Below, piece after piece: positions 4,191-30,622 of a stretch of 64,000 bases of DNA; the stretch's first letter is position 1; each line of letters opens with the position of its first letter. The notes below the pieces were generated by a model that did no database searches, was not told the origin of the DNA, and saw only the letters and a program-made list of their open reading frames with translations. The stretch is from Takakia lepidozioides. Its lineage: Eukaryota; Plantae; Bryophyta. The stretch lies in NCBI GenBank assembly GCA_030704615.1, contig CM060731.1:95170001-95234000 (forward strand), read 5' to 3'. Position numbers and translations under genes: made by a program.

Positions 4191-4490
4191 GAGTGTTTAA
4201 AACCAGCAAGAAGGCTCAAACAAAGCAAGAATGAAAGAGGTGTCAAAGAAAGGAAGAGAACAAAGGAAGATGGCTCAAAGAAACCAAGAATGAAAGAGGG
4301 CTCAAAGAAAGCAAGAGAGGAAAGCAAGAGGCCTCCCACACGGCAAGTCTGGAAGATGGCTTTTCCTATGCAAGAGAGGAAAGCAGGAGAGGTGAAAGAA
4401 AACTAGAATGAAAGAGGCCTCCAAGAAAGCAAGAGAGCAAAGCAAGAGGACTCAAAGAAAGCAAGAATGAAAGAGGGCTCAAAACAACCC
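4140..4490. repeat. Purine-rich degenerate tandem repeat (about 27-bp unit, ctcaaagaaagcaagaatgaaagaggg-like)
   Basis: Recurrent aagaaagcaagaatgaaagaggg / aaagcaagag words. Confidence 0.6.
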
Positions 4491-6580: not shown

Positions 6581-7354
6581 CTACGTATTGGCTGAGTGGC
6601 CACCATGAAGGCTGGCAAACAGGCGACTACTAACATGCATTTCTGCCATGGAAAAGGCCAAGTCATCCACGGCAGTGTTTTCCATGGTCACTGGTGTTGG
6701 TGTGATCAATAACGTAAACACGCACTGCCGCGTCATGCCCAGAGACCAAGGGCAGTCCATGGCATCACGTGTATCTGGAAACTGTTTTTTCAACTGCATC
6801 TTGAAAGCTCCCTTGACCAGCAAGCTACTCCCAGCCATTTCCATGCAGTTCTTCAGATTCATGATGCGCTGTTTGTTAAACTCCCCATGTGCATCTTCCT
6901 CGACGATCCAAAATGGGGATACTTCACCAGTCTTCAAGCTCACTTCCAACCACACGTGCTCACCAGCGAGCCGAGCCTTTCTTGTCATGTCCAACCTAAA
7001 CCCATTGTCCACTGTCAATGTTGAAACAACATCCCATATGGCACGATCGATGCCAATTGTGACATACTCCACTCCGTACGTCGACGGTGCCATAGTCTTG
7101 TGGAGAATGATAACATCCTGCAGATTCACAACCTCTGCCTTGACTTCTCCCACAACAATGGGAGCCACCAGAGTCCTCATGCCTGCCCTATGAGTGACGA
7201 GAGAGGATGTGATGTCCTTCACATCATGGATCTTCGGGACGAGGTTTGCTGCATTGTCTCCGTGAAAGAAAGCCATCACTGAAGTAACGGGGATATGGAG
7301 TGATACTAATATGTATGAAGAGGATGTGAGAGAAGTGGGGGAAAATAGTGACAT
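6581..7354 (-). CDS. Hypothetical protein (about 230-257 aa; likely start MAFFHGD near 7276)
   Basis: Long ORF with globular alpha/beta-like composition. No motif recognised. Confidence 0.45.
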   Translation of the reverse strand: MSLFSPTSLTSSSYILVSLHIPVTSVMAFFHGDNAANLVPKIHDVKDITSSLVTHRAGMRTLVAPIVVGEVKAEVVNLQDVIILHKTMAPSTYGVEYVTIGIDRAIWDVVSTLTVDNGFRLDMTRKARLAGEHVWLEVSLKTGEVSPFWIVEEDAHGEFNKQRIMNLKNCMEMAGSSLLVKGAFKMQLKKQFPDTRDAMDCPWSLGMTRQCVFTLLITPTPVTMENTAVDDLAFSMAEMHVSSRLFASLHGGHSANT

Positions 7355-9425
7355 GCAGACACTGCAACATGCATGAGAACATCGCCCGTAAACCCTATCA
7401 TCCCTATGAACCCTATGAATGTTATCATCCCTATTTCGTCTTCACCATTCGTGCAAACTACATTGTTCATGGCTGGCCCAATGGTCACGTCCTTCTCAGG
7501 TGGCAGTTGTGCCCACATCCCTTCTCCCACTCCTCCATGCCATGCCCACGCAATAGGCATAGAGATTGGGGCCCTACCCTGCTACTAACCCCTCGGCACA
7601 GGTACGGTGACATGCTTCTTGGAGAATGGTTATGTCTACGACTGCTACAGGAGTATATATTGCTCTTAGGACGTCAACGACAATTTCTGTTTGGTGCACA
7701 ATTTACAGAGTTCCATGGCGTTTTTCTGAGCCATGTTGGGGTGAGAGTGTGGATTGTCCTTCCGCATGTAAGATGCCCAATTTGCATGCTGCATTATGGG
7801 AATCCGAATGGATCAGACCGGACTTCCATCGGTGGATATGTAGAACGTCATCGTGGAAGTTGGGTTTATGAACATGTCGAGCTTGATCGGATTGTTGATC
7901 ACCTCCTTGATGTTGATGCTGTTGGAACTGCATGATGGTGGCGGAATTGCACATTTGATTTTGTGAGGGAGGTGGAATTCTTGTCAAATAAGATGAAGTT
8001 CTTCCCTACCCTTTTCTTTCCTCAGGATGAATGGACGCCAGTGAATGTATATTGGGAAACCTAGGGGCCCCAAAGAAAAGCTTGGATTTAGCACTTCATG
8101 ATTAGAGTCCCAAAGTGTAAACTTTAATGCAGACTTTACTGTACATGCAAGCAACCCGCATGCAAGCCTACCCACCCTGGAGACTTACTGCCTCGCTCTC
8201 ATCTTCTCCGCCCTCTGGTTTTCGTTATGATAATATTGACAGGGGTCCAGATTGCAGGGGTTCAGATTGACAGGGGTCCAGATTGCATTGTGATACAAGC
8301 ATCATGATTGGCCTTAATCATCACTGGAGCATGCCTATTGTGCTCACAAGAAACACCTCAATGCTCAAATCATGGCCACACCATCTCTAGTTTTCTGTCT
8401 CACAAGGAAAGATCATGGGAATGACACCCCTGGATTCCATAAATCCAGCTGAACTCTAATTTACTGCACAGCTTCCTCAAAATGTGTGGTTTGTCCCAGT
8501 TACCTATATGAAGCCATGGCAACCCACATGCATGGAAGCCTGGCGACCATGCAGATTTGCTACCTTGCTATGGTATGCACAAATGTAAACCCTGGACACA
8601 GGGCCCTACTCTCAAAGCCATTCTACCATGACCACATTCCCCATGGGTTGTTCACAGTGAAGACATTGTAGAGAAAAAATGTCATCATACATCACACAAT
8701 TGCAGAACGTATTCAATTGTCATGGAAAACTTCGTAAAGGGGCCCTCCAACATTCATCGGTGCATGAATGAGCATGCCGGTCTTGTGGCGTAGCCATGGA
8801 AAACATCGGGGACATGCTCATCTTCCCCAATACAGTATGGTTCGCCATGACTTCTGGTCTGCAATTCTAGCAATACAACATCCCCAATTTCCTTCTTTCA
8901 AATTCGCAGGACGCGGGGGAGAGAATGTTTCAATTCAGGAATGTGAATTTCATTGTAGTCCGTGCTCATTACAACGGATGGTGGGAAGAGAAATGGTGGT
9001 GCAACGGAAAACGGAGAGTGTGTCCCCTCATGTTCCATAAATGAATTCCCTCAAGTACATCCATAGGTGGTGTCAACACTGCTACTGCTACCACTTGAAT
9101 CTGCTGAACTGCTAGTACTGCTACCACCTGAAACTGCTGCACTATCATCTATGAAAAGGTGCTTGAGCGTCTTCCTGGAACTCCAACGCAAGGGTAGGGG
9201 AGAAAACACAGCTGCTTGCACACGAGCAATGCCTTCCGCGTAATCGGGAAGGACATAATTAGGAGGTGGGCTCCAGCACAAGTCCCTCAAGTATATGGAA
9301 GACAGGGGCCACGGGAGTGCATTCACATTCCTGCAATCAGAAATGCACCATTTTGGTAACAATCAGACAACAGAAGGGGATGTGACAGAGCATATACACA
9401 GGGATCAAATAGACAGAAAATAAAC

Positions 9426-10360
9426 TTACTCACATGAAAAGTCATTGTCCAGGTCCTTGTCGTCACCGTCGAGGATATCAATTTGCGCAGTGACATCCTT
9501 GACATTGGAGGTAGACGCGCCCCCTTGCAACTCGGCGAGGAGGCCAGTGAAAATATCTGCATCTCCTTCCATACCAAACAAGTGCTTGCCAGCTGCCTTG
9601 CAAGCATGGTAAGAAGCGCCTGCAAGAGACAAATTGAAGGAATTAGAGTTTTAGAATATTGAGTAAAGAAGGTGCAGAAGAAAAGAAATCGATGACAAAA
9701 GCAAGAAGAGAAACATGTGCCGAGAGTGAGATCTATGATGCGGGCCCCTGGCCGAGAACAACTCTCAATGATCGTTTGGATAAAAGCCGGGCTTTTTTCA
9801 CGGGCCCCTCTCCAAGGCGTTCCATTTGGCTTTCGCAAATATACGTTGGAGTCGACATAGTTGTAGTGCATGTCGTCGACAACAGGATCGAACCTCTCGT
9901 TTATGAAACATCATCCCCCATGAAGCTCGAACTCCACCACTGTGGTGGGAGTTGACAGTGGATGTACCCTCACGAGACAGACGGCCTCAAATAGACGGGT
10001 CTGCGATGAAGAGGACAATAATTAGTGAGTAATGTTTCATAGCACATCTGGGTGGGAGTGCAGACCCATTCTGGATGGAACTGGTTCAGAGTCATTGCTC
10101 ATGCACCGCCATAACTGAGTGCGCTGAAGCACTCAATTCAGGCAGTGCGAACAGCATGACTTCATAACAGTCAGTACAGTGGAACTTCAACAGAGAAGGC
10201 ATAAAAATGAAGTATTTGAAACCCACCTTCTGCCCTGGGCAATCCCCCTTCGTCAGATATAGGTTGTTGACACAGTTCCAGGTCTTGATAATCCGCATCC
10301 CCGAGGCTTTCAAGTAGCTTGCCAGCTCCCGGCGACATCTCATCGTGACAGATTGTATGA
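9426..10360 (-). pseudogene. C-terminal half of an intron-containing N4-cytosine/N6-adenine (beta-class-like) DNA methyltransferase; 5'-truncated, with one in-frame TGA
   Basis: Exons ~10360-10227, 10000-9715 and 9619-9426 are joined by GT-AG introns 10226-10001 (phase 0) and 9714-9620 (phase 1). Spliced product ...PWRGAREKSPAFIQTIIESCSRPGARIIDLTLGT(C)ASYHACKAAGKHLFGMEGD matches the amino-MTase pattern 'KP..l...i...s..Gd.vlDpf.GsG.t..A....gR...G.E.d'. TGA at 9911-9913. Confidence 0.7.
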
Positions 10361-10386
10361 TAACCTCCCCCCCCCTGGAGAACTGA

Positions 10387-10958
10387 GTGCGTCAACACAC
10401 TCAATTTTTTCATGATCATGATTTCAGGATGATCATTGACGAACTGGAGATGGGCAAGTTGGAGGACGCCAACTTTCGTCTGCACCGATCTGTGGCGTCG
10501 ACTCTTGGTGGCCTTGCTGATATGGTGCCTCCTCCAGACGATACTTCGCATCCCACAAGAAGGAATGGCAAAACAGTGCATCGGGTGGCTTCGGGGCCTG
10601 ATCACGATGCGAAGGTGGAATCGGCCAGACTACTTCAGGCTTGGGTAATAGGAACTATGGAAGTACCTTCATCTGGGTATGGACGGGTTTATACTTCACA
10701 TCTGGGTCTGTTTTGCACGACAGGGCCTATCAGGTGACAGTGGGAAATTTTCCGGGGTGTACCTGTCCCGACTTCGTGTGCATACGTGAGGAAGCTCTAG
10801 GAAAGAGAGGGAAATGGGTTCCCTGCAAGCATCTTTACTACATCTTTTTGCGCAAGATGTATTGTGATCCCAAAAGAGACCAAATCATTCACCAGACGAC
10901 ACTAGGTCCTGGTGAGGTACAGACACTTTTGCAGCGAGACATTGGCAATATCGAGTAG
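10387..10958 (+). pseudogene. Inverted, frameshifted copy of the 3' end (SWIM region) of the Mutator-like transposase at 15258-18869
   Basis: HPTRRNGKTVHRVASGPDHDAKVESARLLQA...EVPSSGYGRVYT and YQVTVGNFPGCTCPDFV...GKRGKWVPCKHLYY closely match the 15.3-15.8 kb translation. Confidence 0.85.
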
Positions 10959-11289
10959 TGTTGCATATGTTGCGATTTTTCGCAATGTCGGAAAGGGCTG
11001 CCTTGTTTGTAGAACATGTATACACAGTTCTTAAATTTGGACAAGCATGCGATGTCTCGTTATGAAATGTAGTTTATTTTTTCATCGGGTTTGGTTAACG
11101 AGCCTCTAAAATTGAGTGCGTCAACGCACACCACTTCTGCCCCTAACCCCAATATTGCCCCGGGCCAAAAAAAAAAAACCAAAAAAGCAAAAAAAAAAAC
11201 AAAAAATTGTTCGAGGGCCTGCCAAACATGGACAAGTGTCAGTATGAAAGCTCATTCTATTTTTTCATGGCCTCTACAGAAGCATTGCG

Positions 11290-12720
11290 TAAATGAGCTT
11301 CATGATGACCATCTGTTTTTTTTTCCACTTCTTCTTGAATAACAGGCACCTGAACAAGTTTCACAATGACAGCTCATTTGTTTTCCACGTCCTCTATACA
11401 AACAAACCCTAAATAAGCATTCATGATGACCATATGATTTTTTTTTTCACTTCTTCTTCAATAATAGAAACCTGAAGAAGTTTGACAATGATTGAGCTCA
11501 AGTTTTTTTTTCACCTCTTCTTCACAAACAAACCCTAATTTATTCATGATGACATCTGATTTTTTATTCACCTCTTTTTCATCAACAGAAACCTGAACAA
11601 GATTGACAATGATAGAGCTCAATTTTTTTCACCTCTTCTTCACAAAAAAACCCTAAATAAGCATTCATGATGACCATCTGGTTTTTTCACCTCTTCTTCA
11701 ATAACAGAAACCTGAAGAAGTTTGACAATGGTAGAGCTCAAGTTTTTTTTTCATCTCTTCTTCACAAACGATCCCTAATTTATTCCCTAAATAAGCATTC
11801 ATGATGACCATCTGGTTTTTTTTTCACCTCTTCTTCAATAACAGAAACCTGAAGAAGTTTGACAATGATAGAGCTCAACTTTTTTTTTCACCTCTTCTTC
11901 ACAAACAAACCCTAAATAAGCATATGTTTTTCACCTCTTCTTCAATTACAGAAACCTTAACAAGTTTGAGAATGAGAGCTCAATTTTTTCCACCTCTTCT
12001 TCACAAACAAACCCTAAATAAACATTCATAATGACCATCTGATTTCTTTTTTCACCTCTTCTTCAATAACAAAAACCTGAACAAGTTTGACAATGATAGA
12101 GCTTAACTTTTTTTTTCACCTCTTCTTCACAAACAAACCCTATATAAGCATTCATGGTGACCATCGATTCTTTTTTCACCTCTTCTTCAATAACAGAATC
12201 CTAAACAAGTTTCACAAGGATAGCTCAATGTTTTTTTATACCTCTTCTTCACAAACACACCCTAAATAAGCAATCACAATGACCATGTGTTTTTTTTTCA
12301 CCTCATCTTCAATAACACAAACCTGAACAAGTTCCACAATAAACCGCTCATTTTGTTACACATCTTCTTCACAAACAAAGCCTAAATAAGCTTGAAAATG
12401 ACCATCTGTTTAATTTTCACCTCATCTACATTAACAAAAACCATTGCCTGTTTCACAATGAGGGGTCATATTTTGGGGCCTGTTCTTGCCCATCCTCATT
12501 ATTTTTAACCTCTCCTTCAATATTTCATCCATCATCCATCCACCATGGATGAAATACTAGAAACGTCAGATAGCTTGACAATGAGCATCCAAACTTTTCT
12601 TGCCTCTTGTTCATGCAAGAATCCCTAAATAAGATTCATGATGACTCACCCAGCCTTTTTTTTCCACCTCTTCTTCAATAAGAAAACCTCAGTAAGTTTC
12701 ACAATGACCATTCCATTCAT
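11290..12720. repeat. Tandem array of ~120-125-bp units (two ~60-bp subunits), most containing AAACCCTAA(A) or a close variant
   Basis: ttttcacctcttcttca recurs about every 60 bp. aaaccctaa or a close variant occurs at ~11404, 11530, 11648, 11907, 12010, 12135 and 12260. Confidence 0.85.
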
Positions 12721-12753: not shown

Positions 12754-15006
12754 CATGACAATAGGACCCTCTCTAAACAGAGGACTCGGGTATGGGGCCT
12801 GCTTCTTCCTCCACTAAACCCCTGGGCTCACGCTTAGCAAGCGTGAGCCTAGGCTCATGCTTAGAGGGCAAAGCGTGAGCCGAGCTTCTGGGCTCACACG
12901 GCTAGGCTCACGCCGTAGCTGCACTCGTCGGAAAGCATGACCACCCCATTGCCAGAGGCAATTGCAGAGTCGCTTTTCAACAAGCCCACGATATTATCAA
13001 GGAGGAGGTGAGGTTGAGGCCGGGAGCAAAACCAAAGCAGATACAGCTCGCATCCGCACATAGAATCTTATTAAAGATAGATGGATGAGGTCATCCAATG
13101 GATGAACCCATTCATGTATATGCCTTAAGATGCCACGTGTAGTGATGTCGTCATATAAACAGAGTTGTGAAACCTCATGTAGTCATGTAGTCATAAGCTT
13201 CTATGGCATGTCATCAATGTGTAGTAATGGTGTAGTCATTTTGTTCATGGACTTGCGTGGACCTGGCAGGAGGGGACCTCTGGGTATTCAGCAATTGCTC
13301 GCAAAGTGGAGGATATGGAAAGAGCACAGGGTGCACAACACAAAGATATGATGGATTTGAAGGCTACAATATCGCATGTGATGATGTACCAGAAGGCCAT
13401 GGCTGAGAAATTTGGGATCAACATTTCCTCACCTGCCTTAGTGGGCTCATCCATAGCAAACAGCTCGTGCATCGCTGGCCCTTCAGCCTCGAGACGTCTG
13501 GAGGACAGGTTTGACTTGTCTGGCATGTCACCAGGTAACGTCACTCCCGTTGATGCATTCGAGGATGATGTGCAGGTGGAGCATGTTGGCCCAGGTGGAG
13601 GGGACGACACCCCTACCAAGGAACTTACGCGTCCTCATGCAGTTCTGTCACACTGTGCGGTAGTGGAGGCGCATGCAGAACTCCAGCCTGCTGCTGTCGC
13701 GGTGGGGGCATCTGAGACAACCCTGGACATTGACCTTGTTTCCCCGCGGGCAGATATTACCCAACAACCCACGGTTGTCACTTCCACTCCCAACCTTCAA
13801 TTAATGTCGGAGAATGTCGTGCACACAATAGTGGAGAAGGGCAAGCATTTGCTCATCCTAGATATTAATGGATTGTTGTGTGAGTGCGTCCATGTCGGGA
13901 GTGGTAATGCGTTTGTGGTTCCAAATGGCCTTGAGCACAAATTATGTGGTAGCAAGATGGTCGTTGTAAGGCCTGGTTGCAAAGCTTTTTTGGACAAGTG
14001 TTTCGAACACTTTGAAGTGGCAGCATGGTCTTGTATGCAACCACGTAATTTCCTACCCACAGTGGACTGGCTTTTCCATGGGCACCGTGACCTTGCATTC
14101 AAGTGGGATGGGGGATATTGTGAGCAGTCCACTGACATGGATGGGAGCCTGCCCATGAAACCACGATTTCTGAAGAACCTATCTACAGTGTGGCGGGACA
14201 ACTGTGTCTGGAATCCTGAAACCACTCTTCTTGTTGACGACACACCGCACAAGGGGTCAAAAAATCCAGCATACAGCGCCATTTTCCCACTGCCTTGGAG
14301 AAGTCGTTCTGTAGAGGCGCACAATGATAATTTCCTTCTGACCAGCTTATGGCCCTTCTTGGAGGGGGCAGCTAAGGCTCCGAGCATTCCAGAATATCTC
14401 AAAGGGCAACCCACATTTGGGCAACAAGCTATCAGCCCTCGAGCCATTCAGCCTCGCCAGGTAACATACTTTGTAGTGTGGTACACAGTGCCAGACATTA
14501 GAGGCATTTTTGTGTGACTCCCTTGTGCCATTGCCAGCCTCATTTGTGCTTAAGTTGTGGCAGTAAAACATGTTGTGACAGAGTTTGTCAAATTACTGTC
14601 GCAGTGTCAACTGTAGGCATTGACAGTTTGGGTGCATCTTATTGTGTTAGTGTAATTTGAGTTCCCAGTGTAGATAATATACATTTTTGGTGCTTGTTGG
14701 TTGGTTGTAGGTGCTTGGCCACGAACGAGGCCCCCCAAATCAAAGGGCAGCACACCTTCACCCTTTGAGGAAGCCGACACCACTGATCCCTGATTCGCAG
14801 AATGGGGTAAGTGTATGCATCTGCTATTCTCCCCTTCCGAGCGTAGCTACGGCGTGAGCCCAACCCCGTGAGCCTGGGAGCTGAGCTCACGTTCAAGCTA
14901 CAAAGCGTGAGCTGAGCTCACGCTTCAGGGAAGCGTGAGCGGCACGAATCTGCTGGAGAAGAAGGTCCTATAGGCGAGGATTGCAGGAAGAGGGCCTATT
15001 ACCGTG
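12754..15006. mobile_element. Non-autonomous TIR element (~170-bp imperfect TIRs built of GCTCACGC/GCGTGAGC palindromes) carrying a phosphatase-like gene
   Basis: 12760-12920 aligns with the reverse complement of 14840-15000 (aatagg(a)ccctct; gctcacgctt..aagcgtgagc; ggctcacgccgtagct). No TSD identified. Confidence 0.65.
13306..14517 (+). CDS. FCP1/SCP-like (NIF family, HAD superfamily) phosphatase-domain protein
   Basis: HAD motif I-like KHLLILDINGLL, then VRPGCKAFLDKCFEHFEVAAWS, KPRFLKNL and TTLLVDDTPHKGSKNP..SAIFP, as in plant NIF-domain proteins. The N-terminal part is low-complexity. Confidence 0.8.
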   Translation: MEDMERAQGAQHKDMMDLKATISHVMMYQKAMAEKFGINISSPALVGSSIANSSCIAGPSASRRLEDRFDLSGMSPGNVTPVDAFEDDVQVEHVGPGGGDDTPTKELTRPHAVLSHCAVVEAHAELQPAAVAVGASETTLDIDLVSPRADITQQPTVVTSTPNLQLMSENVVHTIVEKGKHLLILDINGLLCECVHVGSGNAFVVPNGLEHKLCGSKMVVVRPGCKAFLDKCFEHFEVAAWSCMQPRNFLPTVDWLFHGHRDLAFKWDGGYCEQSTDMDGSLPMKPRFLKNLSTVWRDNCVWNPETTLLVDDTPHKGSKNPAYSAIFPLPWRSRSVEAHNDNFLLTSLWPFLEGAAKAPSIPEYLKGQPTFGQQAISPRAIQPRQVTYFVVWYTVPDIRGIFV

Positions 15007-15257: not shown

Positions 15258-18200
15258 TCAAAGAGAAGTTGGCGGAGCTCCACGTGAGGTGTCCCGCTGT
15301 AGAAGGGTGTTCACTTCTCCATAGCCTAGTGTGGCTTGGTGGATGAATTGGTCTCTCTTACCGCCATAAGCTTATGTAGCACTTGTTGACGTGTAGTAGT
15401 GCATACATAATCACAAGGTATATGTAATATTGATGCTTGCAGGGGACCCACTTCCCCCTCATGCCGAGAGCGCCCTCACGCATCGTTACAAAGTCCGGAC
15501 AAGTGCACGAAGGGAAATTCCCGACGGTAACCTGATATTCTTTGCCATGAAGAACTGACCCAATTGACAGCACTGTGTAAATCCGTCCATACCCCGAAGA
15601 AGGGACTTCGGTGATACGAGACACCCGAGCCTGCAAAATTCTAGCAGATTCCATCTTGCATTCGTGATCTGCACCCGAAGCGAAACGGCGCACTGTTTTT
15701 CCATCTCTTTTTGTTGGGTGGGAGTCGGCACAGGGTGGCGGCATTGCCAGAGCATGTGGCACATCTGTGCCGACAGTGCATGAGGGCACCACCCGGGACC
15801 GTGCAAGACAGAACCCTCCCTCCTCCAGCATGCTTATCTCGGTTGATGACAGCGACGTCCCAATTTGCACAGGCCAAATTGCGGGGGGAGGGGGTTTCAT
15901 TATCACCGAAGGACGAACTGTTCCCTTCACGCATCGTGCCATATCGTCTGGGCAAAACCAAAATTTGTGGTCCTTTGACTCCCCACTATGATAAGGTCGG
16001 AACAACCCTGTGAATGTTGGAGCTGGAGTCCCCCTGGAGCCTTTGCATATCTTTGATTTGCATTTCTTGAATGAGGGGGTCCGAATTGCCATGCAAGCCA
16101 CTCTAGATCCTGGTGGGGTGCGTTCTATATGCCACTCACTATCAATGCAATCGGATTCCTGCACCATGGCCACCGCCTCCTCCAATGGGATTCCCGCTGC
16201 TGTGCTTGTATGTTCTGCACGTGCTCCACTGGAGGAGGACCCACCTGGGAAGGGGCGGGCACACGACTCAGTCTGCAGTGGAGACACCTTTGGCACAGAG
16301 AAATTGACCCTGTCTGGCCGATGGGAATCTCCATCTGACCCTGGAAGAGTGTTCAATTTCCTTTTGCATGATCCAAATCTTTCCTCGCCTTCCAAATGGG
16401 GGATCCTGGATTGTAGAGCGGACCCTTCAGTGCATCTGTTTAGAGCTCTGGCCATCTTTGACGGGACTCCGGACCTACTCGCAGCCCTTAGCATCAACAA
16501 AGTCGTATCAGGGCCCTTGCCTCCACCCCGTCCCATCAGAAAATTGCGGTACCTGGTTTGTTGTGTAAGTGCACGCACCATGTCATCAGCAGTGGCCACA
16601 TACAAGTCACGACCTGCTTTGGTAGACTGCTGCATCCAGGCGTTGTGAACAGTCTCCGCCAAATTACAGGATGGCATGTCGGCCAAGTCCTCCAAGGACA
16701 TGTCTTGCAGGAGGCATTGCATGGATATGTCAGGAACGAAAACAAATGGTAGAGGTTCTTCAAGTGACAATCAAAGAACCCCAAATGAACAGGCACGATG
16801 CAAAATTTCTGTTTTTGGGATTGAAGAGGCTTAACGTCGTCATGAAAGATCCCCACTGTCTGTACCTGAAGTTCCAGAAAACCAACCAGTCCTCCAAACT
16901 CCTTTACGTGGGTACCTGTTGCAGCACCAGAGGAGAATCACCAAGCCCGGATTGCCTGGTAAGTGCTCTCAGCTTCTCCCATTGAGGTGGCATTCTTGTA
17001 CTTGAGACAGAACCTTCTGTGCTCCAACTGCAGGTCAGGGCGAATGCAGCGCTTTGTATGACGTGCCAGAGATTGAGTCCAATGGAAGAGGCATGTGCGC
17101 TCCGTATTTTCCATTGGGACCTTAGGATCCCCCGAACCAAACACGCGTCGCACTGCATTGAAATTTGCCTGTGCACTATCAGCCATGAAGCCCGCAAAAT
17201 TTGTGTTTTGTATTCCATTGCGCTGCATGACGGCCAAGAGCGAATTCCACATGAGCATTTGGGATTCAGTGTCCTCCGACTGCATATCACAAATTGCTAT
17301 GGAGAGCACACGCTGGTACGCCGGATCATACACATGGCACGCCATGGTTGTCCAACCCTTCACCCGTTTGCAGTGATCAAACATTAACCAACATTTAGCC
17401 AAATCTCCTCCTGGTTGCATACGGCGGACAATGCTCACACCACTGCCTTCGCCCACAGCGGACATCTTGAACAAATACACCTTGGACGAGCCCTGGCCAG
17501 GGAAGATACTGTTTTGAATGAATTCATAGCGACTCCTCCGTTTCAGGTCCATAATGTTGTCCATGAATCCAGCAGTGCCTGTGCCCATTCTGAGTGCATT
17601 CACCTGGTTTCGAATATTGGGAGAGCTCAACACGGAGAAATGGTCCATGACTGCATTAAGCGAATCTGCATCCAGCATAAGTTCTGTCGCATCCCCTTCA
17701 CCCAGTATGTGTTTCTCCAGGAATGCCTTGCTAGCTGCAAGCGCTATAGCAGAAGGTGTTGCACAAGGGGCATTGTGGAACTCCTGCTTCAGCAGATTTC
17801 TAGCGATGTCCACGCTATCCCTGCAACTTCCTTTGGACACAGGATGCTCGTGTGCACCCATATGAATGCAGGCACGAGTCATTGTCTTGCATCGGTGTGC
17901 CACCTGATACATACGAGCGTGGCACACAGAAACACAGGACGGGGAAAGTTTGCAGAACCTGCACACGAAAGTATTGGTCCTGGGAGGGGCAAGCCCTGGG
18001 GTGAAAGGATTCAGGGGCACACCTTCCCACTCACTTTCGTTTGGTTGAGCGCTGTTTCTCAGGCGAGGGCAAGAAATATTCTGGCACTTACAATGCCCAA
18101 CGCAGACTGACCTCCGAAATTTCAAGCCAATGTCGTTATGGATGTTCGACGTTTTTGTCCTGCACCAAGGATGTCCGTCATGTTTCTTGTCCATGCCCTG

Positions 18201-18869
18201 TAAAAGCCCAGCCAGTCCAGTGGAAGAGGTGGGAGGGTTGAGCTCAAACAGGATGTCCCCATCAAACTGTGCTGGCACGTATTGAACCCGTTGCACAGGA
18301 AGGGACTCCCAGTCAACAAAACGCAGCTCGCTCTTGCACCCAGGCACACCTGCGAGGGCTTTCAATTTTGGAATGACACTCGTTATCTCTTGCAATTCGT
18401 CATCATCCAATGACGGAGTCTGCACTGGCGGAGGAATCTCAGAAACATCCTCCGAGGACGAGTCTGAAAGAGTCACGAAGGTAGTGGATGTGCTCACCTC
18501 TTGTTTCACAGGAACTGTGCCCTTCTGTTGCACGACCGATGCTGCAGTGCCAGGGGTAACGACCGATCCTGCTGATTGTCTTCTCTCTTTTCCAAGGACA
18601 CGGTATGTGCCTGGAAGGACTCTCCACTTCCTTCCACACTTGCCAACCAATGGTTTCTCCAAGTGCCCAGAATCCAAATTCCCATCCTCGTCATACACCT
18701 CTTTTTGAACAAGGAGAGAACCCAACTCCAGCGGGAACACTGTAACCAGCTCATCCTCATGAACAACTGCAAACCCATCGTCGTCTGCAGTGGCAGTCAG
18801 TGGAAGAGTACCTGCATTGGAATGGAATCGAGCAAGTGTATCTCGCTCCCTCGACATGTTTTCCCTCAC
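15258..18869 (-). pseudogene. Mutator-like (MULE) DDE transposase with N-terminal GCM-like Zn domain and C-terminal SWIM finger; inactivated
   Basis: Catalytic-type motifs LMFDH (~17376), GFMADSAQAN (~17178), CLFH (~17090) and SCNLAETVH (~16654). SWIM motif CTCPDF...PCKH. Lesions: W-to-TGA at 16938, a frameshift near 16897, a probable intron ~16706-16835 with decayed splice sites, and a 37-bp insertion at 15365-15401. The true C-terminus DQFIHQATLGYGEVNTLLQRD...* ends at 15258. Confidence 0.85.
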
Positions 18870-19627
18870 TGAACGAAAGTTGCGGAATCCTCGAACTGAT
18901 AGCCCGCAATTACCGAAAGGGGAATTAAGACAAGCAAACCGAGGTCAACAAGGCTAGCTCCAATCCAAAGGTTGCAGGTGATGCATGCAAAGGATGTAGG
19001 GATGAGATGCACCTTCACTTCGGAAACAGCAACGCCAAGAGGCACTAACCAGAAAAACTGTTTTCAAATACTACAAGAAGCCGTGCTGTTTATGGATGAA
19101 AACAAACACTGAAAACGACATGAAACCATCCATTATGAAAAGACGGCAACAACCCTGGAGAGCAGTAAACAGGAAGACCACAAATGTCATGAGGTTGTGC
19201 TGTGCCAGAAGAGCACAGCACAAACACTGACACTGCAGAAGATACCTCGCACGAATGCGTGCCAGACATGGTCGTATCCGACAGAACCCTTTATGCCGAA
19301 TGACCCCATGGCGACGGTAACGGTAAACTGCAAACCACAGGGTAGGCAGTACAACACACGTGGATGCATATGTGAAGCATAACAATTATTGCGGATCTGC
19401 AAGAACTGCTCGAAAATGAACTAGCATTAGATTTCTACGGCACATCCGAATTTGAAAGAAAGCAAGAAGGCCGCGGTGTATTGGCAGGCGGCGCAGTACA
19501 TCTGACATATATCGCTAGTGCATGCAACGGATGTACTTTTTTTCTTGCGCTTTATTGCTTGGATAATACGGAGACGACGGAATGGATGAATTCCGTTCGC
19601 ACACAATAACAACACCCGCATCCAAAT

Positions 19628-20209: not shown

Positions 20210-23200
20210 GAAGCCCAAACAGTGTGCGGCAACGCACACTGTTTGGGCCTACCAATTTGCTTGATTGTTCAGGTGCGAAACGCCCAAACTTGGGCACTAC
20301 AGCAGGTTCAACACAACCCAAATTGCAACCTCAAACAATGTGACATGAGCTGAACATTTCACTGCTGTTTCCGTCTGGATATCGGTTTTCCAGGATATGT
20401 ATGTCAGGACGACAGAACCCTTCAGTGGCAGCTCAAACAGTGTGCGTTGGCGCACACTGTTTGAGCTCTACATGTCACGGTTTTCTCCGTGTCGAATTCG
20501 GCCTTTAGGGCACGTTTCTGATGATGAAATAACCATTCAGTGGCAGCTCAAACAGTGTGCGTTGGCGCACACTGTTTGAGCTGAACATGTAAGTGTTTTT
20601 TCCGATTGAAATTCGGACTTCCAGGGCAGGTTTATGATGATGAAATAACCATTCAGTGGCAGCTCAAACAGTGTGCGTTGGCGCACACTGTTTCAGCTGA
20701 ACATGTCACTGTTTTTTTGGTGTTAAAATTCGGCATTTAGGGCATGTTTCTGAGGATGAAATAACCATTCAGTGGCAGCTCAAACAGTGTGCGTTGGCGC
20801 ACACTGTTTGAGCTGTACATGTCACTGTTTTTTTGGTGTTAAATTCGGACTTCCAGGGAGGTTTATGATGATGAAATAACCATTCAGTGGCAGCTCAAAC
20901 AGTGTGCGTTGGCGCACACTGTTTGAGCTGTACATGTCACTGTTTTTTCGTGTTAAATTCGGACTTCCAGGGCAGGTTTATGATGATGAAATAACCATTC
21001 AGTGGCAGCTCAAACAGTGTGCGTTGGCGCACACTTTTGAGCTGAACATGTAAGTGTTTTTTTCCGATTGAAATTCGGACTTCCAGGGCAGGTTTATGAT
21101 GATGAAATAACCATTCAGTGGCAGCTCAAACAGTGTGCGTTGGCGCACACTGTTTGAGCTGAACATGTAAGTGTTTTTTTGGTGTTAAATTCGGCATTTA
21201 GGGCACGTTTCTGAGGATGAAATAACCATTCAGTGGCAGCTCAAACAGTGTGCGTTGGCGCACACTGTTTGAGCTGTACATGTCACTGTTTTTTTGGTGT
21301 TAAATTCGGACTTCCAGGGCAGGTTTATGATGATGAAATAACCATTCAGTGGCAGCTCAAACAGTGTGCGTTGGCGCACACTGTTTGAGCTGAACATGTC
21401 ACTTTTTTTTTGGTGTTAAAATTGGCATTTAGGGCACGTTTTTGAGGATGAAATAACCATTCAGTGGCAGCTCAAACAGTGTGCGTTGGCGCACACTGTT
21501 TGAGCTGTACATGTAAGTGTTTTTTGGTGTTAAATTCGGCTTTTAGGGCACGTTTTTGAGGATGAAATAACCATTCAGTGGCAGCTCAAACAGTGTGCGT
21601 TGGCGCACACTGTTTGATGAACATGTACGTGTTTTTTCCGATTGAAATTTGGCATTTAGGGCACGTTTCTGAGTATGAAATAACCATTCAGTGGCAGCTC
21701 AAACAGTGTGCGTTGGCGCACACTGTTTGAGCTGAACATGTAAGTGTTTTTTAGAGTTCAAATTCGGCATTTAGGGCACGTTTCTGAAAAATAACCATTC
21801 AGTGGCAGCTCAAACAGTGTGCGTTGGCGCACACTGTTTGAGCTGTACATGTCACTGTTTTTTGGTGTTAAATTCGGACTTCCAGGGCAGGTTTATGATG
21901 ATGAAATAACCATTCAGTGGCAGCTCAAACAGTGTGCGTTGGCGCACACTGTTTGAGCTGAACATGTAATTGTTTTTTTGGTGTTTAAATTCGGCATTTA
22001 GGGCACGTTTCTGAGAATAAATAACCATTCAGTGGCAGCTCAAACAGTGTGCGTTGGCGCACACTGTTTGAGCTGAACATGTAAGTGTTTTTTTGGTGTT
22101 AAATTCGGCATTTAGGGCACGTTTCTGAGGATGAAATAACCATTCAGTGGCAGCTCAAACAGTGTGCGTTTGCGCACACTGTTTGAGCTGTACATGTCAC
22201 TGTTTTTTTGGTGTTAAATTCAGACTTCCAGGGCAGGTTTATGATGATGAAATAACCATTCAGTGGCAGCTCCAACAGTGTGCGTTGGCGCACAAAGTTT
22301 GCGCTGTACATGTCACTTTTTTTTTGGTGTTAAATTCGGACTTCCAGGGCAGGTTTATGATGATGAAATAACCATTCAGTGGCAGCTCAAACAGTGTGCG
22401 TCGACGCACACTGTTTGAGCTGAACATGTAAGTGTTTTTTTCCGATTGAAATTTGGCATATAGGGCTCGTTTTTTAGTATGAAATAATCATTCAGTGGAA
22501 GCTCAAACAGTGTGCGTTGGCGCACACTGTTTGAGCTGAACTTGTAAGTGTTTTTTAGAGGTAAAATTCGGCATTTAGGGCACGTTTCTGAGAAAAAATA
22601 ACCATTCAGTGGCAGCTCAAACAGTGTGCGTTGGCGCACACTGTTTGAGCTCTACATGTCACTGTTTTTTTGGTGTTAAATTCGGACTTCCAGGGCAGGT
22701 TTATGATGCTGAAATAACCATTCAGTGGCAGCTCAAACACTGTGCGTTGGCGCACAAAGTTTGCGCTGTACATGTCACTGTTTTTTTGGTGTTAAATTCG
22801 GATTTCCAGGGCAGGTTTATGATGATGAAATAACCATTCAGTGGCAGCTTAAACAGTGTGCGTCGGCGCACACTGTTTGAGTTGAACATGTAAGTGTTTT
22901 TTCCGATTGAAATTTGGCATTTAGGGCACGTTTTTTAGTATGAAATAATCATTCAGTGGCTACTCAAACAGTGTCCGTTGGCGCACACTGTTTTAGCTGA
23001 ACTTGTAAGTGTTTTTTAGAGGTAAAATTCGGCATATAGGGCACGTTTCTGAGAAAAAATAACCATTCAGTGGCAGCTCAAACAGTGTGCGTTGGCGCAC
23101 ACTATTTGAGCTGTACATGTCATTGTTTTTTTGGTGTTAAATTCGGACTTCCAGTCAAGTTTATGATGCTGAAATAACCATTCAGTGGTAGCTCAAACAG

Positions 23201-26200
23201 TGTGCGTTGGCGCACACTGTTTGAGTTGAACATCTAAGTGTTTTTTCGATTCAAATTCGGCATTTAGGGCACGTTTTTGAGTATGAAATAACCATTCAGT
23301 GGCAGCTCAAACAGTGTGCGTTGGCGCACACTCTTTGAGCTGTACATGTCACTGTTTTTTTGGTGTTAAATTCAGACTTCCAGGGCAGGTTTATGATGAT
23401 GAAATAACTATTCAGTGGCAGCTCAAACAGTGTGCGTTGGCGCACTCTGTTTGAGTTGTACATGTCACTGTTTTTTTGGTGTTAAATTCGGACTTCCAGG
23501 GCAGGTTTATGATGATGAAATAATCATTCAGTGGCAGCTCAAACAGTGTGCGCCAACGCACACTGTTTGAGCTGAACATGTAATTGTTTTTTTGGTGTTT
23601 AAATTCGGCATTTAGGGCACGTTTCTGAGGATGAAATAACCATTCAGTGGCAGCTCAAAAAGTGTGTGTTGGCGTACACTGCTTGAGCTGAACATGTAAG
23701 TATTTTTTTGCTGTTAAAATTCGGCATTTAGGGCACATTTCTGAGGATGAAATAACCATTCAGTGACATCTCAAACAGTGTGCGTTTGCGCACACTGTTT
23801 GAGCTGTACATGTCACTGTTTTTTTGGTGTTAAATTCGGACTTCCAGGACAGGTTTATGATGATGAAATAACCATTCAGTGGCAGCTCAAACAGTGTGCG
23901 TTGGCGCACACTATTTGAGTTGAACATGTAAGTGTTTTTTCCGATTGAAATTTGGCATATAGGGCTCGTTTTTGAGTATGAAATAATCATTCAGTGGCAG
24001 CTCAAACAGTGTGCGTTGGCGCACACTGTTTGAGCTGAACTTGTAAGTCTTTTTTAGAGGTAAAATTCGGCATTTAGGGCACGTTTCTGAGAAAAAATAA
24101 CCATTCAGTGGCAGCTGAAACAGTGTGCGTTGGCGCACACTGTTTGAGCTGTACATGTCACTGTTTCTTTGGTGTTAAATTCGGACTTCCAGGGCAGGTT
24201 TATGATGCTGAAATAACCATTCAGTGGCAGCTCAAACAGTGTGCGTTGGCGCACACTGTTTGCGCTGTACATGTCACTGTTTTTTTGGTGTTAAATTCCG
24301 ACTTCCAGGGCAGGTTTATGATGTGAAATATCCATTCAGTGGCAGCTCAAACAGTGTGCGTCGGCGCACACTGTTTGAGCTGAACATGTAAGTGTTTTTT
24401 TCCGATTTGAAATTTGGCATTTAGGGCACGTTTCTGAGGATGAAATAACCATTCAGTGGCAGCTCAAACAGTGTGCGTTGGCGCACACCGTTTGAGTTGT
24501 ACATGTCACTGTTTTTTTGGTGTTAAATTCGGACTTCCAGGGCAGGTTTATGATGATGAAATAATCATTCAGTGGCAGCTCAAATAGTGTACGCCAACGC
24601 ACACTGTTTGAGCTGAACATGTAATTGTTTTTTTGGTGTTTAAATTCGGCATTTAGGGCACGTTTCTGAGGATGAAAAAAACATTCAGTGGCAGCTCAAA
24701 CAGTGTGCGTTGGCGCACACTGTTTGAGCTCTACATGTCACTGTTCCTTTCGTGTTAAATTCGGACTTCCAGGGCAGGTTTATGATGATGAAATAACCAT
24801 TCAGCGGCAGCTCAAACAGTGTGCGTTGGCGCACACTTTTTGATTTGAACATGTAAGTGTTTTTTCCGATTGAAATTCGGACTTCCAGGGCAGGTTTATG
24901 ATGATGAAATAATCATTCAGTGGCAGCTCAAACAGTGTGCATTGCCGCACACTGTTTGAGCTGAACATGTAAATGTTTTTTTTGGTGTTAAATTTCGGCA
25001 TTTAGGGCACGTTTCTCAGGATGAAATAACCATTTAGTGGCAGCACAAACAGTGTGCGTTGGCGCACACTATTTGAGCTGTACATGTCACTGTTTTTTTG
25101 GTGTTAAATTCGGACTTCCAGGGCTGGTTTATGATGATAAAATAACCATTCAGTGGCAGCTCAAACAGTGTGCGTTGGCGCACACTGTTTCAGCTGAACA
25201 TGTCACTTTTTTTTGGTGTTAAAATTGGGCATTTAGGACACGTTTTTGAGGATGAAATAACCATTCAGTGGCAGCTCAAACAGTGTGCGTTGGCGTACAC
25301 TGTTTGAGCTGTACATGTAAGTGTTCTTTTGGTGTTAAAATTCGGCTTTTAGGGCACGTTTTTGAGGATGAAATAACCATTCAGTGACAGCTCAAACAGT
25401 GTGCGTTGGCGCACACTGTTTGATTGAACATGTACGTGTTTTTTTCCGATTGAAATTTGGCATTTAGGGCACGTTTCTGAGTATGAAATAACCATTCAGT
25501 GGTAGCTCAAACAGTGTGCGTTGGCGCACACTGTTTGAGCTGAACTTGTAAGTGTTTTTTAGAGTTCAAATTCGGCATTTAGGGCACGTTTCTGAAAAAA
25601 AAAATAACCATTCAGTGGCAGCTCAAACAGTGTGCGTTGGCGCACACTGTTTGAGCTGTACATGTCACTGTTTTCTTGGTGTTAAATTCGGACTTCCAGG
25701 GCAGGTTTATGATGATGAAATAACCATTCAGTGGAAGCTCAAACAGTGTGCGTTGGCGCACACTGTTTGAGCTGAACATGTAATTGTTTTTTTGGTGTTT
25801 AAATTCGGCATTTAGGGCACGTTTCTGAGAATAAAATAACCATTGAGTAGCAGCTCAAACAGTGTGCGTTGGCGTACACTGTTTGAGCTGAACATGTAAG
25901 TGTTTTTTTGGTGTTACAATTCGGCATTTAGGGCACGTTTCTGAGGATGAAATAACCATTCAGTGACAGCTCAAACAGTGTGCGTTTGCGCACACTGTTT
26001 GAGCTGTACATGTCACTGTTTTTTTGGTGTTAAATTCAGACTTCCAGGGCAGGTTTATGATGCTGAAATAACCATTCAGTGGCAGCTCCAACAGTGTGCG
26101 TTGGCGCACAAAGTTTGCGCTGTACATGTCACTTTTTTTTGGTGTTAAATTCGGACTTCCAGGGCAGGTTTATGATGATGAAATAACCATTCAGTGGCAG

Positions 26201-29200
26201 CTCAAACAGTGTGCGTCGACGCACACTGTTTGAGTTGAACATGTAAGTGTTTTTTCCGATTGAAATTTGGCATATAGGGCTCGTTTTTTAGTATGAAATA
26301 ATCATTCAGTGGAAGCTCAAACAGTGTGCGTTGGCGCACACTGTTTGAGCTGAACTTGTAAGTGTTTTTTAGAGGTAAAATTCGGCATTTAGGGCACGTT
26401 TCTGAGAAAAAATAACCATTCAGTGGCAGCTCAAACAGTGTGCGTTGGCGCACACTGTTTGAGCTCTACATGTCACTGTTTCTTTGGTGTTAAATTCGGA
26501 CTTCCAGGGCAGGTTTATGATGCTGAAATAACCATTCAGTGGCAGCTCAAACACTGTGCGTTGGCGCACAAAGTTTGCGCTGTACATGTCACTGTTTTTT
26601 TGGTGTTAAATTCGGATTTCCAGGGCAGGTTTATGATGATGAAATAACCATTCAGTGGCAGCTTAAACAGTGTGCGTCGGCGCACACTGTTTGAGTTGAA
26701 CATGTAAGTGTTTTTTCCGATTGAAATTTGGCATTTAGGGCACGTTTTTTAGTATGAAATAATCATTCAGTGGCTACTCAAACAGTGTCCGTTGGCGCAC
26801 ACTGTTTTAGCTGAACTTGTAAGTGTTTTTTAGAGGTAAAATTCGGCATATAGGGCACGTTTCTGAGAAAAAATAACCATTCAGTGGCAGCTCAAACAGT
26901 ATGCGTTGGCGCACACTATTTGAGCTGTACATGTCATTGTTTTTTTGGTGTTAAATTCGGACTTCCAAGTCAAGTTTATGATGCTGAAATAACCATTCAG
27001 TGGTAGCTCAAACAGTGTGCGTTGGCGCACACTGTTTGAGTTGAACATCTAAGTGTTTTTTCGATTCAAATTCGGCATTTAGGGCACGTTTTTGAGTATG
27101 AAATAACCATTCAGTGGCAGCTCAAACAGTGTGCGTTGGCGCACACTCTTTGAGCTGTACATGTCACTGTTTTTTTGGTGTTAAATTCAGACTTCCAGGG
27201 CAGGTTTATGATGATGAAATAACTATTCAGTGGCAGCTCAAACAGTGTGCGTTGGCGCACTCTGTTTGAGTTGTACATGTCACTGTTTTTTTGGTGTTAA
27301 ATTCGGACTTCCAGGGCAGGTTTATGATGATGAAATAATCATTCAGTGGCAGCTCAAACAGTGTGCGCCAACGCACACTGTTTGAGCTGAACATGTAATT
27401 GTTTTTTTGGTGTTTAAATTCGGCATTTAGGGCACGTTTCTGAGGATGAAATAACCATTCAGTGGCAGCTCAAAAAGTGTGTGTTGGCGTACACTGCTTG
27501 AGCTGAACATGTAAGTATTTTTTTGCTGTTAAAATTCGGCATTTAGGGCACATTTCTGAGGATGAAATAACCATTCAGTGACATCTCAAACAGTGTGCGT
27601 TTGCGCACACTGTTTGAGCTGTACATGTCACTGTTTTTTTGGTGTTAAATTCGGACTTCCAGGACAGGTTTATGATCATGAAATAACCATTCAGTGGCAG
27701 CTCAAACAGTGTGCGTCGGCGCACACTATTTGAGTTGAACATGTAAGTGTTTTTTCCGATTGAAATTTGGCATATAGGGCTCGTTTTTGAGTATGAAATA
27801 ATCATTCAGTGGCAGCTCAAACAGTGTGCGTTGGCGCACACTGTTTGAGCTGAACTTGTAAGTCTTTTTTAGAGGTAAAATTCGGCATTTAGGGCACGTT
27901 TCTGAGAAAAAATAACCATTCAGTGGCAGCTGAAACAGTGTGCGTTGGCGCACACTGTTTGAGCTGTACATGTCACTGTTTCTTTGGTGTTAAATTCGGA
28001 CTTCCAGGGCAGGTTTATGATGCTGAAATAACCATTCAGTGGCAGCTCAAACAGTGTGCGTTGGCGCACACTGTTTGCGCTGTACATGTCACTGTTTTTT
28101 TGGTGTTAAATTCCGACTTCCAGGGCAGGTTTATGATGTTGAAATATCCATTCAGTGGCAGCTCAAACAGTGTGCGTCGGCGCACACTGTTTGAGTTGAA
28201 CATGTAAGTGTTTTTTCCGATTGAAATTTGGCATTTAGGGCACGTTTCTGAGGATGAAATAACCATTCAGTGGCAGCTCAAACAGTGTGCGTTGGCGCAC
28301 ACCGTTTGAGTTGTACATGTCACTGTTTTTTTGGTGTTAAATTCGGACTTCCAGGGCAGGTTTATGATGATGAAATAATCATTCAGTGGCAGCTCAAATA
28401 GTGTACGCCAACGCACACTGTTTGAGCTGAACATGTAATTGTTTTTTTGGTGTTTAAATTCGGCATTTAGGGCACGTTTCTGAGGATGAAAAAAACATTC
28501 AGTGGCAGCTCAAACAGTGTGCGTTGGCGCACACTGTTTGAGCTCTACATGTCACTGTTCCTTTCGTGTTAAATTCGGACTTCCAGGGCAGGTTTATGAT
28601 GATGAAATAACCATTCAGTGGCAGCTCAAACAGTGTGCGTTGGCGCACACTTTTTGATTTGAACATGTAAGTGTTTTTTCCGATTGAAATTCGGACTTCC
28701 AGGGCAGGTTTATGATGATGAAATAATCATTCAGTGGCAGCTCAAACAGTGTGCATTGCCGCACACTGTTTGAGCTGAACATGTAAATGTTTTTTTGGTG
28801 TTAAATTTCGGCATTTAGGGCACGTTTCTCAGGATGAAATAACCATTTAGTGGCAGCACAAACAGTGTGCGTTGGCGCACACTATTTGAGCTGTACATGT
28901 CACTGTTTTTTTGGTGTTAAATTCGGACTTCCAGGGCTGGTTTATGATGATAAAATAACCATTCAGTGGCAGCTCAAACAGTGTGCGTTGGCGCACACTG
29001 TTTCAGCTGAACATGTCACTTTTTTTTTGGTGTTAAAATTGGGCATTTAGGACACGTTTTTGAGGATGAAATAACCATTCAGTGGCAGCTCAAACAGTGT
29101 GCGTTGGCGTACACTGTTTGAGCTGTACATGTAAGTGTTCTTTTGGTGTTAAAATTCGGCTTTTAGGGCACGTTTTTGAGGATGAAATAACCATTCAGTG

Positions 29201-30622
29201 ACAGCTCAAACAGTGTGCGTTGGCGCACACTGTTTGATTGAACATGTACGTGTTTTTTCCGATTGAAATTTGGCATTTAGGGCACGTTTCTGAGTATGAA
29301 ATAACCATTCAGTGGTAGCTCAAACAGTGTGCGTTGGCGCACACTGTTTGAGCTGAACTTGTAAGTGTTTTTTAGAGTTCAAATTCGGCATTTAGGGCAC
29401 GTTTCTGAAAAAAAAATAACCATTCAGTGGCAGCTCAAACAGTGTGCGTTGGCGCACACTGTTTGAGCTGTACATGTCACTGTTTTTTGTGTTAAATTCG
29501 GACTTCCAGGGCAGGTTTATGATGATGAAATAACCATTCAGTGGCAAGCTCAAACAGTGTGCGTTGGCGCACACTGTTTGAGCTGAACATGTAATTGTTT
29601 TTTTGGTGTTTAAATTCGGCATTTAGGGCACGTTTCTGAGAATGAAATAACCATTGAGTAGCAGCTCAAACAGTGTGCGTTGGCGTACACTGTTTGAGCT
29701 GAACATGTAAGTGTTTTTTTGGTGTTACAATTCGGCATTTAGGGCACGTTTCTGAGGATGAAATAACCATTCAGTGACAGCTCAAACAGTGTGCGTTGGC
29801 GCACACTGTTTGAGCTGTACATGTCACTGTTTTTTTTGGTGTTAAATTCGGACTTCCAGGGCAGGTTTATGATGATGAAATAACCATTCAGTGGCAGCTC
29901 AAACAGTGTGCGTTGGCGCACACTGTTTGAGCTGTACATGTCACTTTTTTTTTGGTGTTAAATTCGGACTTCCAGGGCAGGTTTATGATGATGAAATAAC
30001 CATTCAGTGGCAGCTCAAACAGTGTGCGTCGGCGCACACTGTTTGAGTTGAACATGTAAGTGTTTTTCCGATTGAAATTTGCATATAGGGCTCGTTTTTT
30101 AGTATGAAATAATCATTCAGTGGAAGCTCAAACAGTGTGCGTTGGCGCACACTGTTGAGCTGAACTTGTAAGTGTTTTTTAGAGGTAAAATTCGGCATTT
30201 AGGGCACGTTTTCTGAGAAAAAATAACCATTCAGTGGCAGCTCAAACAGTGTGCGTTGGCGCACACTGTTTGAGCTCTACATGTCACTGTTTCTTTGGTG
30301 TTAAATTCGGACTTCCAGGGCAGGTTTTATGATGCTGAAATAACCATTCAGTGGCAGCTCAAACAGTGTGCGTTGGCGCACACTGTTTGCGCTGTACATG
30401 TCACTGTTTTTTTGGTGTTAAATTCGGATTTCCAGGGCAGGTTTATGATGATGAAATAACCATTCAGTGGCAGCTTAAACAGTGTGCGTCGGCGCACACT
30501 GTTTGAGTTGAACATGTAAGTGTTTTTTCCGATTGAAATTTGGCATTTAGGGCACGTTTTTTTAGTATGAAATAATCATTCAGTGGCTACTCAAACAGTG
30601 TGCGTTGGCGCACACTGTTTTA
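20210..30622. repeat. Satellite array of ~115-116-bp monomers (about 88 copies), each with a perfect 40-bp hairpin; ~3.8-kb higher-order repeat; continues into the gap
   Basis: cagctcaaacagtgtgcg-ttgg-cgcacactgtttgagctg (18-bp arms) recurs, with monomer anchors at 20421, 20536, 20652, 20768, 20883, 20998 and onward. A degenerate first hairpin lies at ~20213-20248. Confidence 0.97.

Follow-up and report, generated by a model that had tools for sequence, protein, structure and literature searches.

The minus strand of a 64,000-nucleotide stretch of Takakia lepidozioides DNA (hereafter the window, taken at its full length) carries a dead, four-exon copy of a gene from a protein family with a predicted methylase fold and no DPPY motif. 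In our preferred reading, to which we assign a probability of roughly 0.4, the family is an accessory of Mutator-like elements (MULEs) whose product binds palindromes of its own element without normal methylase activity and shields that element from silencing.

The gene remnant is spliced, with four exons separated by three GT..AG introns of 226, 95 and 99 nt (Table 1). The three exons and the peptide proposed in the initial annotation are real, as is its observation that one intron splits motif I, and its view that the gene is spliced as in eukaryotes is borne out by introns conserved in relatives; a fourth exon (exon D) and a TGA had been overlooked. The spliced product aligns with residues 486-722 of KAG0605740.1 from Ceratodon purpureus (29% identity, 249 aa, E 4e-24), so the exon set is more than a chance assembly. 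Taken singly, the window exons return no Pfam match, no PDB match and no word-index homologue, and exon A alone is weakly supported, as the best of 1595 window ORFs against a profile of the family's motif-IV exon (E 0.022). The sole internal stop in the 298 spliced codons is an in-frame TGA at 9913-9911, in exon B. The reading frame is truncated at 10364, with motif IV expected upstream of this point. Contigs from X1 and X2 continue past the break with different letters, which by an eye reading add ten in-frame codons of the LxDxG-hydrophobic type seen in the family. No motif-IV-like peptide was found elsewhere in the 64-kb window, and the missing 5′ half has therefore not been displaced nearby. 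The window copy is a pseudogene fragment whose 5′ half is gone, and it is unable to encode the full protein. Contigs from X6 and X7, runs guessed to be RNA, touch small parts of it, one of them within exon C, with no junction spanned, which weighs neither for nor against expression.

Table 1. Coordinates of the features discussed in the text, in window numbering
Feature	Position	Strand	Basis or remark
Whole multi-copy fragment	8895..10364	-	X1 contig with 32 differing letters; loose ends at 8895 and 10364
Exon D, conserved C-terminal motif and stop codon	9051..9330	-	Ceratodon proteins match by tblastn (48-59%, 29 aa)
Intron, GTAAGT..TTGCAG, 99 nt	9331..9429	-	splicing
Exon C, remainder of motif I plus motif II (acidic position for the SAM ribose)	9430..9619	-	Ceratodon match, alignment
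Intron interrupting motif I, GT..AG, 95 nt	9620..9714	-	position common to 8/9 metagenome loci compared (no row returned for L022)
Exon B, counterpart of motif X (WRGAREK) plus the first half of motif I	9715..10000	-	phmmer, splicing
Intron, GT..AG, 226 nt, containing family palindrome	10001..10226	-	junction also in L001, P0061/P0062
Spaced palindrome in methylase intron (site 10117)	10113..10138		matches 10381 site at all 20 specified bases
Exon A remnant, stretch after motif IV	10227..10364	-	motif-IV-exon profile and splice script; cut at 10364
Family palindrome just beyond break, adjoining C-run (site 10385)	10381..10406		pattern search
MULE transposase 3′ piece, SWIM finger, frameshifted, head-to-head with methylase-like gene	10429..10958	+	72% DNA identity over 303 nt to transposase at 15422-15723; weak SWIM match, E 0.044 (Pfam)
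Family palindrome after SWIM stop codon	11114..11131		pattern search
122-bp tandem array, 9.5 copies, without palindrome	11290..12442		repeat calls
Second, high-copy MULE transposase, two open frames (DDE core, SWIM)	15358..18944	-	ESM Atlas
Palindrome 20222 and 116-bp array with related palindrome, upstream of second transposase	20222..30620		88 matches

The fragment belongs to a repeat. Summed contig depth in X2, which we take as marking a repeat and not as a copy number, is 9,000-12,000 over 8812-11415, against 200-490 across most of the left flank, and beyond both ends of the fragment other copies carry different sequence. Together with the dispersed Ceratodon paralogues described below, the raised depth supports the multi-copy repeat status claimed for the gene at the outset. 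The methylase and SWIM pieces are alike in X1, both in depth (12.4 and 14.4) and in divergence (32/1470 and 16/775). The SWIM piece has a separate left end in 12 contigs of X3, and because of this independent end and the nested fragments in the window, the adjacency of the two pieces may be secondary. Two contigs, one from X7 (882 nt, depth 50) and one from X6 (919 nt, depth 84), cover part of the 3′ flank at 8895-9013 and extend into off-window sequence, which may represent an additional gene of the intact element. To the left of the fragment lie two low-copy open frames on the minus strand, at 6581-7441 and 3360-4196 (286 and 278 aa), neither with a Pfam match.

A phmmer search with exon B retrieved 37 proteins at E values up to 0.001, one of which, P0008, is a spurious hit to a repeat protein and was dropped. 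Most of the relatives found in this way are single-exon calls ending at the common motif-I intron. Four full-length members of 758-810 aa are present in Ceratodon purpureus, where their locus tags (M758_9G084500, 3G218200, 1G310400 and 6G158200) point to chromosomes 9, 3, 1 and 6; two of these four paralogues are 89-91% identical to the query domain. The metagenome scan gave 23 loci, and removal of L019, a false match on a bacterial contig, left 22 plant loci that fall into 14 groups at 95% identity. In their common layout, a low-complexity linker joins the conserved N-terminal domain (~260 aa) to the methylase-like domain, and a short motif follows at the C-terminus. The GTDB scan yielded no prokaryotic relative with the WRGAREK word once L019 and L030/L031 (chance matches of 13-18 aa) had been dropped; the viral contigs scanned gave no locus and the plasmids searched no match. 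A phage search returned weak matches only (E about 0.01-0.3), and those listed are nearly all annotated methylases. In a tree with five phage outgroups only and long branches, the window copy joins L001, P0013, P0029 and P0033 (96/97), and the donor is not named.

The initial annotation had placed a DPPY or SPPY motif in the missing 5′ half, and the relatives speak against this. None of the 32 family sequences that span motif IV (from 18 loci and 14 proteins, counting near-copies; in a further four loci the site is not covered) reads [DNS]PP[YFW] there, and the usual form is instead D-[V/A/I]-P-E. We count 13 instances of DVPE, seven of DAPE, three of DIPE and two each of DAPS and DAPD, with DLPK, DIFE, YAPE, DALE and DTPS occurring once each. 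By position, Asp is first in 31 of 32 and Pro third in 30 of 32, and the fourth residue is Glu in 26, Ser in three, Asp in two and Lys in one. The nearest relative of the window copy that spans the motif, L001, reads DIPE; the site of the window copy itself is deleted. Five of six phage comparators have DPPY or DLPY, the sixth CDS beginning past the site. The HPTQKP word found in 5/5 phage comparators, together with a GSG[TS]T motif I, is WRG[ASP]REK in the family. Motif I is degenerate in family members, with its first Gly often replaced, and the acidic residue of motif II is retained in 44 of 45 rows. In the model of N4CMT, as presented in the portion of that study available to us (PMC10406627), the Tyr of SPPY stacks against the target base, the Ser and the following main-chain carbonyl grip the amine, and a bond to the cofactor ribose comes from a His. 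Set against this modelled SPPY, DxPE would keep the amine-holding half and lose the stacking residue. Judging from these motifs, we lean slightly towards a loss of normal methylase activity in the family protein.

An AlphaFold model of the Ceratodon methylase-like domain (mean pLDDT 65.3, pTM 0.63) has a permuted Rossmann fold in which motif IV precedes motifs X and I and the D-A-P-E site follows the strand at residues 53-57; the motif-IV loop is poorly predicted, with pLDDT below 50 at residues 60-78. The VIA comparison ranks CcrM at Z 13.4 (rmsd 4.0 over 204 aligned residues), HpyAVI at 12.8, N4CMT at 12.7 and PvuII at 12.3. Its best 11 rows (Z 10.6-13.4) are beta-class amino-methyltransferases throughout, and MT-A70 proteins score lower, at Z 6.1-8.0. 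Foldseek likewise returns M1.HpyAVI (E 1.9e-7) and CcrM (E 6.3e-7). The methylase-like domain is thus predicted to adopt a beta-class DNA amino-methyltransferase fold, in keeping with the motif order and homology originally proposed. At 12-16%, identity to N4CMT matches the range for CcrM or PvuII and indicates no closer tie to N4CMT than to the bacterial enzymes. Sequence profiles agree weakly with this assignment. The MTase profile hit anticipated by the initial annotation did not appear in the window exons scanned one by one, and Pfam N6_N4_Mtase (PF01555) gives weak matches in 11 of 38 proteins, mostly entered as single exons, the best at 26.5 bits and below the cut-off of 26.7. A profile of the family's motif-IV exon found no methylase when compared with the PDB by sequence. 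The N-terminal domain is modelled as all-helical (mean pLDDT 60.5; best structural match Z 5.4), and a fold search with this low-confidence model gave no clear match and no ParB row among the matches listed, an outcome that we do not read as a sign of a novel fold.

Pairwise dN/dS values, calculated by the Nei-Gojobori method for nine of the 22 loci, whose synonymous sites are close to saturated, are 0.02-0.15 for the motif-IV exon, 0.02-0.20 for the motif X-I exon and 0.06-0.27 for the N-terminal exons (pairs with dS above 0.5). As judged from these ratios, the methylase-like domain is under strong purifying selection.

The palindrome in the first intron of the remnant connects the gene to its surroundings. 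Its form with 20 specified bases has two sites in the window, compared with a shuffle mean of 0.02, and the palindrome pattern occurs at 10117, 10385, 11114 and 20222 and at 87 array sites, and nowhere else in the window (shuffle mean 0.15). Since the methylase intron and the SWIM piece have this palindrome in common, the gene is linked to a DNA transposon. Of the earlier proposal that a transposon carries its own non-5mC methyltransferase, the transposon link is supported, and the catalytic claim is doubtful in light of the 0/32 relatives with DPPY or SPPY. The 116-bp satellite (88 units, 10 kb, 20416-30620), which stops at a 500-N assembly gap, is grown from a MULE palindrome unit. Uniformity is higher in its palindrome columns (0.966) than in the remaining ones (0.864). 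The two CGs of the palindrome are intact in 74/78 and 78/78 array units, which are not independent of one another, and we rejected this retention as strong evidence since it depends too much on homogenisation.

Among the relatives, a different word, TCGG-N2-CCGA, or its half-site is present in the gene flanks of seven of the 14 locus groups, in six of them as arrays (L003, L004/5/7/8, L006, L009/10, L011/12 and L015/17/18/20) and in L016 as a single site. The array units called by TRF are 73-128 bp long and either tandem or regularly spaced, and their sequences differ apart from the word or half-site itself. Arrays lie on both sides of the gene in three groups, L004/5/7/8, L009/10 and L011/12. 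In L004, L005, L007 and L008, the 85-bp upstream and downstream arrays are mutually inverted, and those of L009/10 and L011/12 are direct. No palindrome of the TCGG-N2-CCGA type was seen in the flanks of L001, L002, L013, L014, L021, L022 and L023; four of these seven have little flank, and L001, L013 and L022 have at least 0.6 kb. The subfamily of the window has a word unlike TCGG-N2-CCGA, and word and protein thus change in step, to the extent that a comparison of two words allows. From this arrangement we infer, at somewhat better than even odds, that the family protein binds the CG-containing palindromes arrayed around its element's genes.

The second transposase in the window is assigned through ESM Atlas, where the top match scores 0.95, MULE PF10551 is present in 61% of the members and the ten best family matches agree. 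Its first frame has no Pfam match, and its N-terminal part is, by motif, putatively GCM-like. The transposase, SWIM and NIF frames of the window match nothing in the 22 plant loci, which are 1.2-5.7 kb long. In neither the window nor these loci was an intact element with both a methylase-like gene and a transposase seen, and no shared ends or target-site duplication were seen around the methylase-like gene and the MULE piece. With the shared palindrome in mind, we consider the methylase-like gene to be, probably, an accessory gene carried by moss Mutator-like transposons.

Other frames and repeats share the window. At 13228-14517 on the plus strand, convergent with the second MULE transposase, an open frame encodes an FCP1/NIF-type phosphatase domain (Pfam E 1.6e-15) between inverted repeats of ~100 bp (12826-12927 and 14838-14940). 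These repeats bear a second type of palindrome, at 12825, 12875, 14903 and 14916, and the frame may be an additional accessory gene that has a word of its own. Degenerate tandem repeats of about 372 bp, presumably PPR-like by motif, occupy 39850-43100 on the minus strand. Retrotransposon integrase frames (rve, Integrase_H2C2) lie at 31361-32824 and 60882-62597 on the plus strand, and 10-bp repeats of the CACAGC type come after both; the first has behind it, in addition, a 1347-aa frame (32686-36729) without a meaningful Pfam match.

If the preferred reading holds, an intact copy would supply the protein in trans and the protein would recognise the palindrome of its own subfamily. A former base-flipping, SAM-binding scaffold would have been reused as a DNA clamp, which might hold off the host 5mC machinery or keep promoters open, and palindrome and protein would drift jointly between subfamilies. 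That the protein acts as such a non-catalytic clamp on its element's palindromes and counters silencing is a real possibility; the anti-silencing role is suggested by analogy with VANC of the VANDAL MULEs. More tentatively, moss Mutator transposons may have made a bacterial restriction-modification methylase into a sequence-specific anti-silencing device, working either as a DxPE-rewired enzyme of new chemistry or as a base-flipping, 5mC-blocking clamp on CG palindromes, with protein-palindrome pairs co-evolving in each subfamily.

The retained Asp and Pro of motif IV, the acidic residue of motif II and the motif I that is kept would equally fit a working enzyme. Such a protein would be an active, atypical amino-methyltransferase with Glu where the stacking Tyr would stand, depositing 4mC or 6mA within or close to the palindromes of a self-marking transposon. 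Strong purifying selection on the motif-IV exon is consistent with activity, as are the tolerance of phage enzymes for a change at the second motif position (DLPY), the N6/N4 methylase genes carried by algal transposons and, within the limits of non-independent units, the intact CGs of the array. We nonetheless find an active enzyme rather unlikely, because the fourth position is non-aromatic in all 32 sequences and variable (E, S, D, K), the His of HPTQKP and often the first Gly of motif I are replaced, and no member reaches the Pfam N6_N4_Mtase cut-off. MULE transposases also bind repeats, so the palindromes may belong to the transposase, and the methylase-fold protein would then be a conserved passenger, whether a transposase or chromatin partner or an RNA binder. 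It would suit this assignment that the transposase downstream of the largest array has an N-terminal part that is, by motif, presumably DNA-binding-like. A passenger role of this kind has been proposed for inactive DIRS1 MTase domains (in the portion of PMC4738411 available). What makes transposase-owned sites unlikely is that the arrays of L004/5/7/8, L009/10 and L011/12 closely flank the methylase-like gene on both sides and that one window palindrome sits inside this gene's own intron.

The gene might also ride another element, or an array-flanked cassette moving between transposon families, its MULE adjacency being an accident of nesting. Both ends of the fragment are truncated, the piece beside it ends independently, a transposase was found in 0 of the 22 plant loci, and algal accessory genes are described as moving between Plavaka, Mutator and Zisupton elements (bioRxiv 2025.02.11.637652, as far as available). 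The agreement of the intron and SWIM-piece palindromes at 20/20 specified bases and the matched depth and divergence of the two pieces render a different carrier quite improbable. Introns conserved among distant relatives, along with strong purifying selection, would be expected if a Pack-MULE-style capture had taken a fragment from a family of host genes that, like DN4MT1, encode a domesticated methylase of bacterial type. Dispersed paralogues that are nearly identical, arrays in the flanks and the many subfamilies point away from such an origin, as does the TSPPY of DN4MT1, which is absent from the family, and we hold it to be very improbable indeed.

To our knowledge, transposon escape from DNA-methylation silencing has been worked out for few systems, VANC being the plant example. 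The present family is a second candidate anti-silencing system. Its gene models in Ceratodon purpureus look intact and a candidate target word is visible, so binding and activity are directly testable. It also raises the question of whether methylation is still possible in a beta-class fold that lacks the aromatic residue of DPPY, and where plant repeats are annotated as 'bacterial N4C/N6A methylase', motif IV should be inspected before 4mC or 6mA is inferred.

Amino-methylase genes in transposons are already known from algae. The Ectocarpus transposon Sola1-1_Ec32 carries a ParB-MTase accessory gene (PMC12477816), and Plavaka transposons of Bostrychia carry the amino-methylase accessory genes PAG2 and PAG3, the latter adjoining inverted-repeat arrays proposed as its binding targets (bioRxiv 10.1101/2025.02.11.637652). 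The moss family shares with these a bacterial-type amino-methylase domain in an accessory gene of a DNA transposon. Going by the algal descriptions available to us, it is set apart by its land-plant host, its likely MULE carrier and its non-canonical motif IV, and no ParB or SET domain was found in its N-terminal domain, modelled at low confidence as all-helical. In the accessible text of Iyer 2016 (PMC4738411) no such land-plant clade is listed, and the accessible supplement contains no WRGAREK or WRGSREK string, although alignment gaps could hide one. A term search of the available part of a MULE survey (PMC6446971) did not return 'methyltransferase', and PMC12344493, in the part available, names only the two host cases. 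No published description of a methylase-fold, MULE-linked family was found in the literature searched, parts of which were accessible to us, and as far as found there, the moss family with its altered active site and palindrome arrays is undescribed.

Compared with beta-class enzymes (CcrM, M1.HpyAVI, M.PvuII, M.MboIIA, N4CMT and DN4MT1), the family is alike in its predicted fold and in having motif IV before motifs X and I. It differs in the replacement of DPPY/SPPY by D-[V/A/I]-P-E and of HPTQKP by WRG[ASP]REK, in its low identity (9-16% in structure alignments) and in its additional 260-aa N-terminal domain and C-terminal motif. The host 4mC writers DN4MT1 (bioRxiv 2021.02.12.428880) and N4CMT (PMC8885841) are reported, in the portions available, with TSPPY and SPPY (the latter in PMC10406627), respectively. 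METTL14 and the MTase domains of DIRS1, as treated in the available part of PMC4738411, also combine a conserved methylase fold with disrupted active-site motifs, and DIRS1 is likewise transposon-borne; they belong to other clades (MT-A70 and PCIF1-derived), and our model scores lower against MT-A70 proteins than against the bacterial beta enzymes.

For VANC of the Arabidopsis VANDAL MULEs, binding and demethylation have been shown, and the targets are tandem repeats in VANC and VANB introns and upstream of the transposase that differ between related MULEs (PMC5735166, in the part available). By analogy, the moss family, a likely MULE accessory, has words particular to a subfamily, which are tandemly repeated and lie within its own intron and upstream of a transposase. 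It departs from VANC in having no VANC domain in Pfam scans, a predicted methylase fold and CG-containing palindromes that it would bind. If our reading is true, land plants would possess a second VANC-like system, independent of the first and with a methylase as its scaffold.
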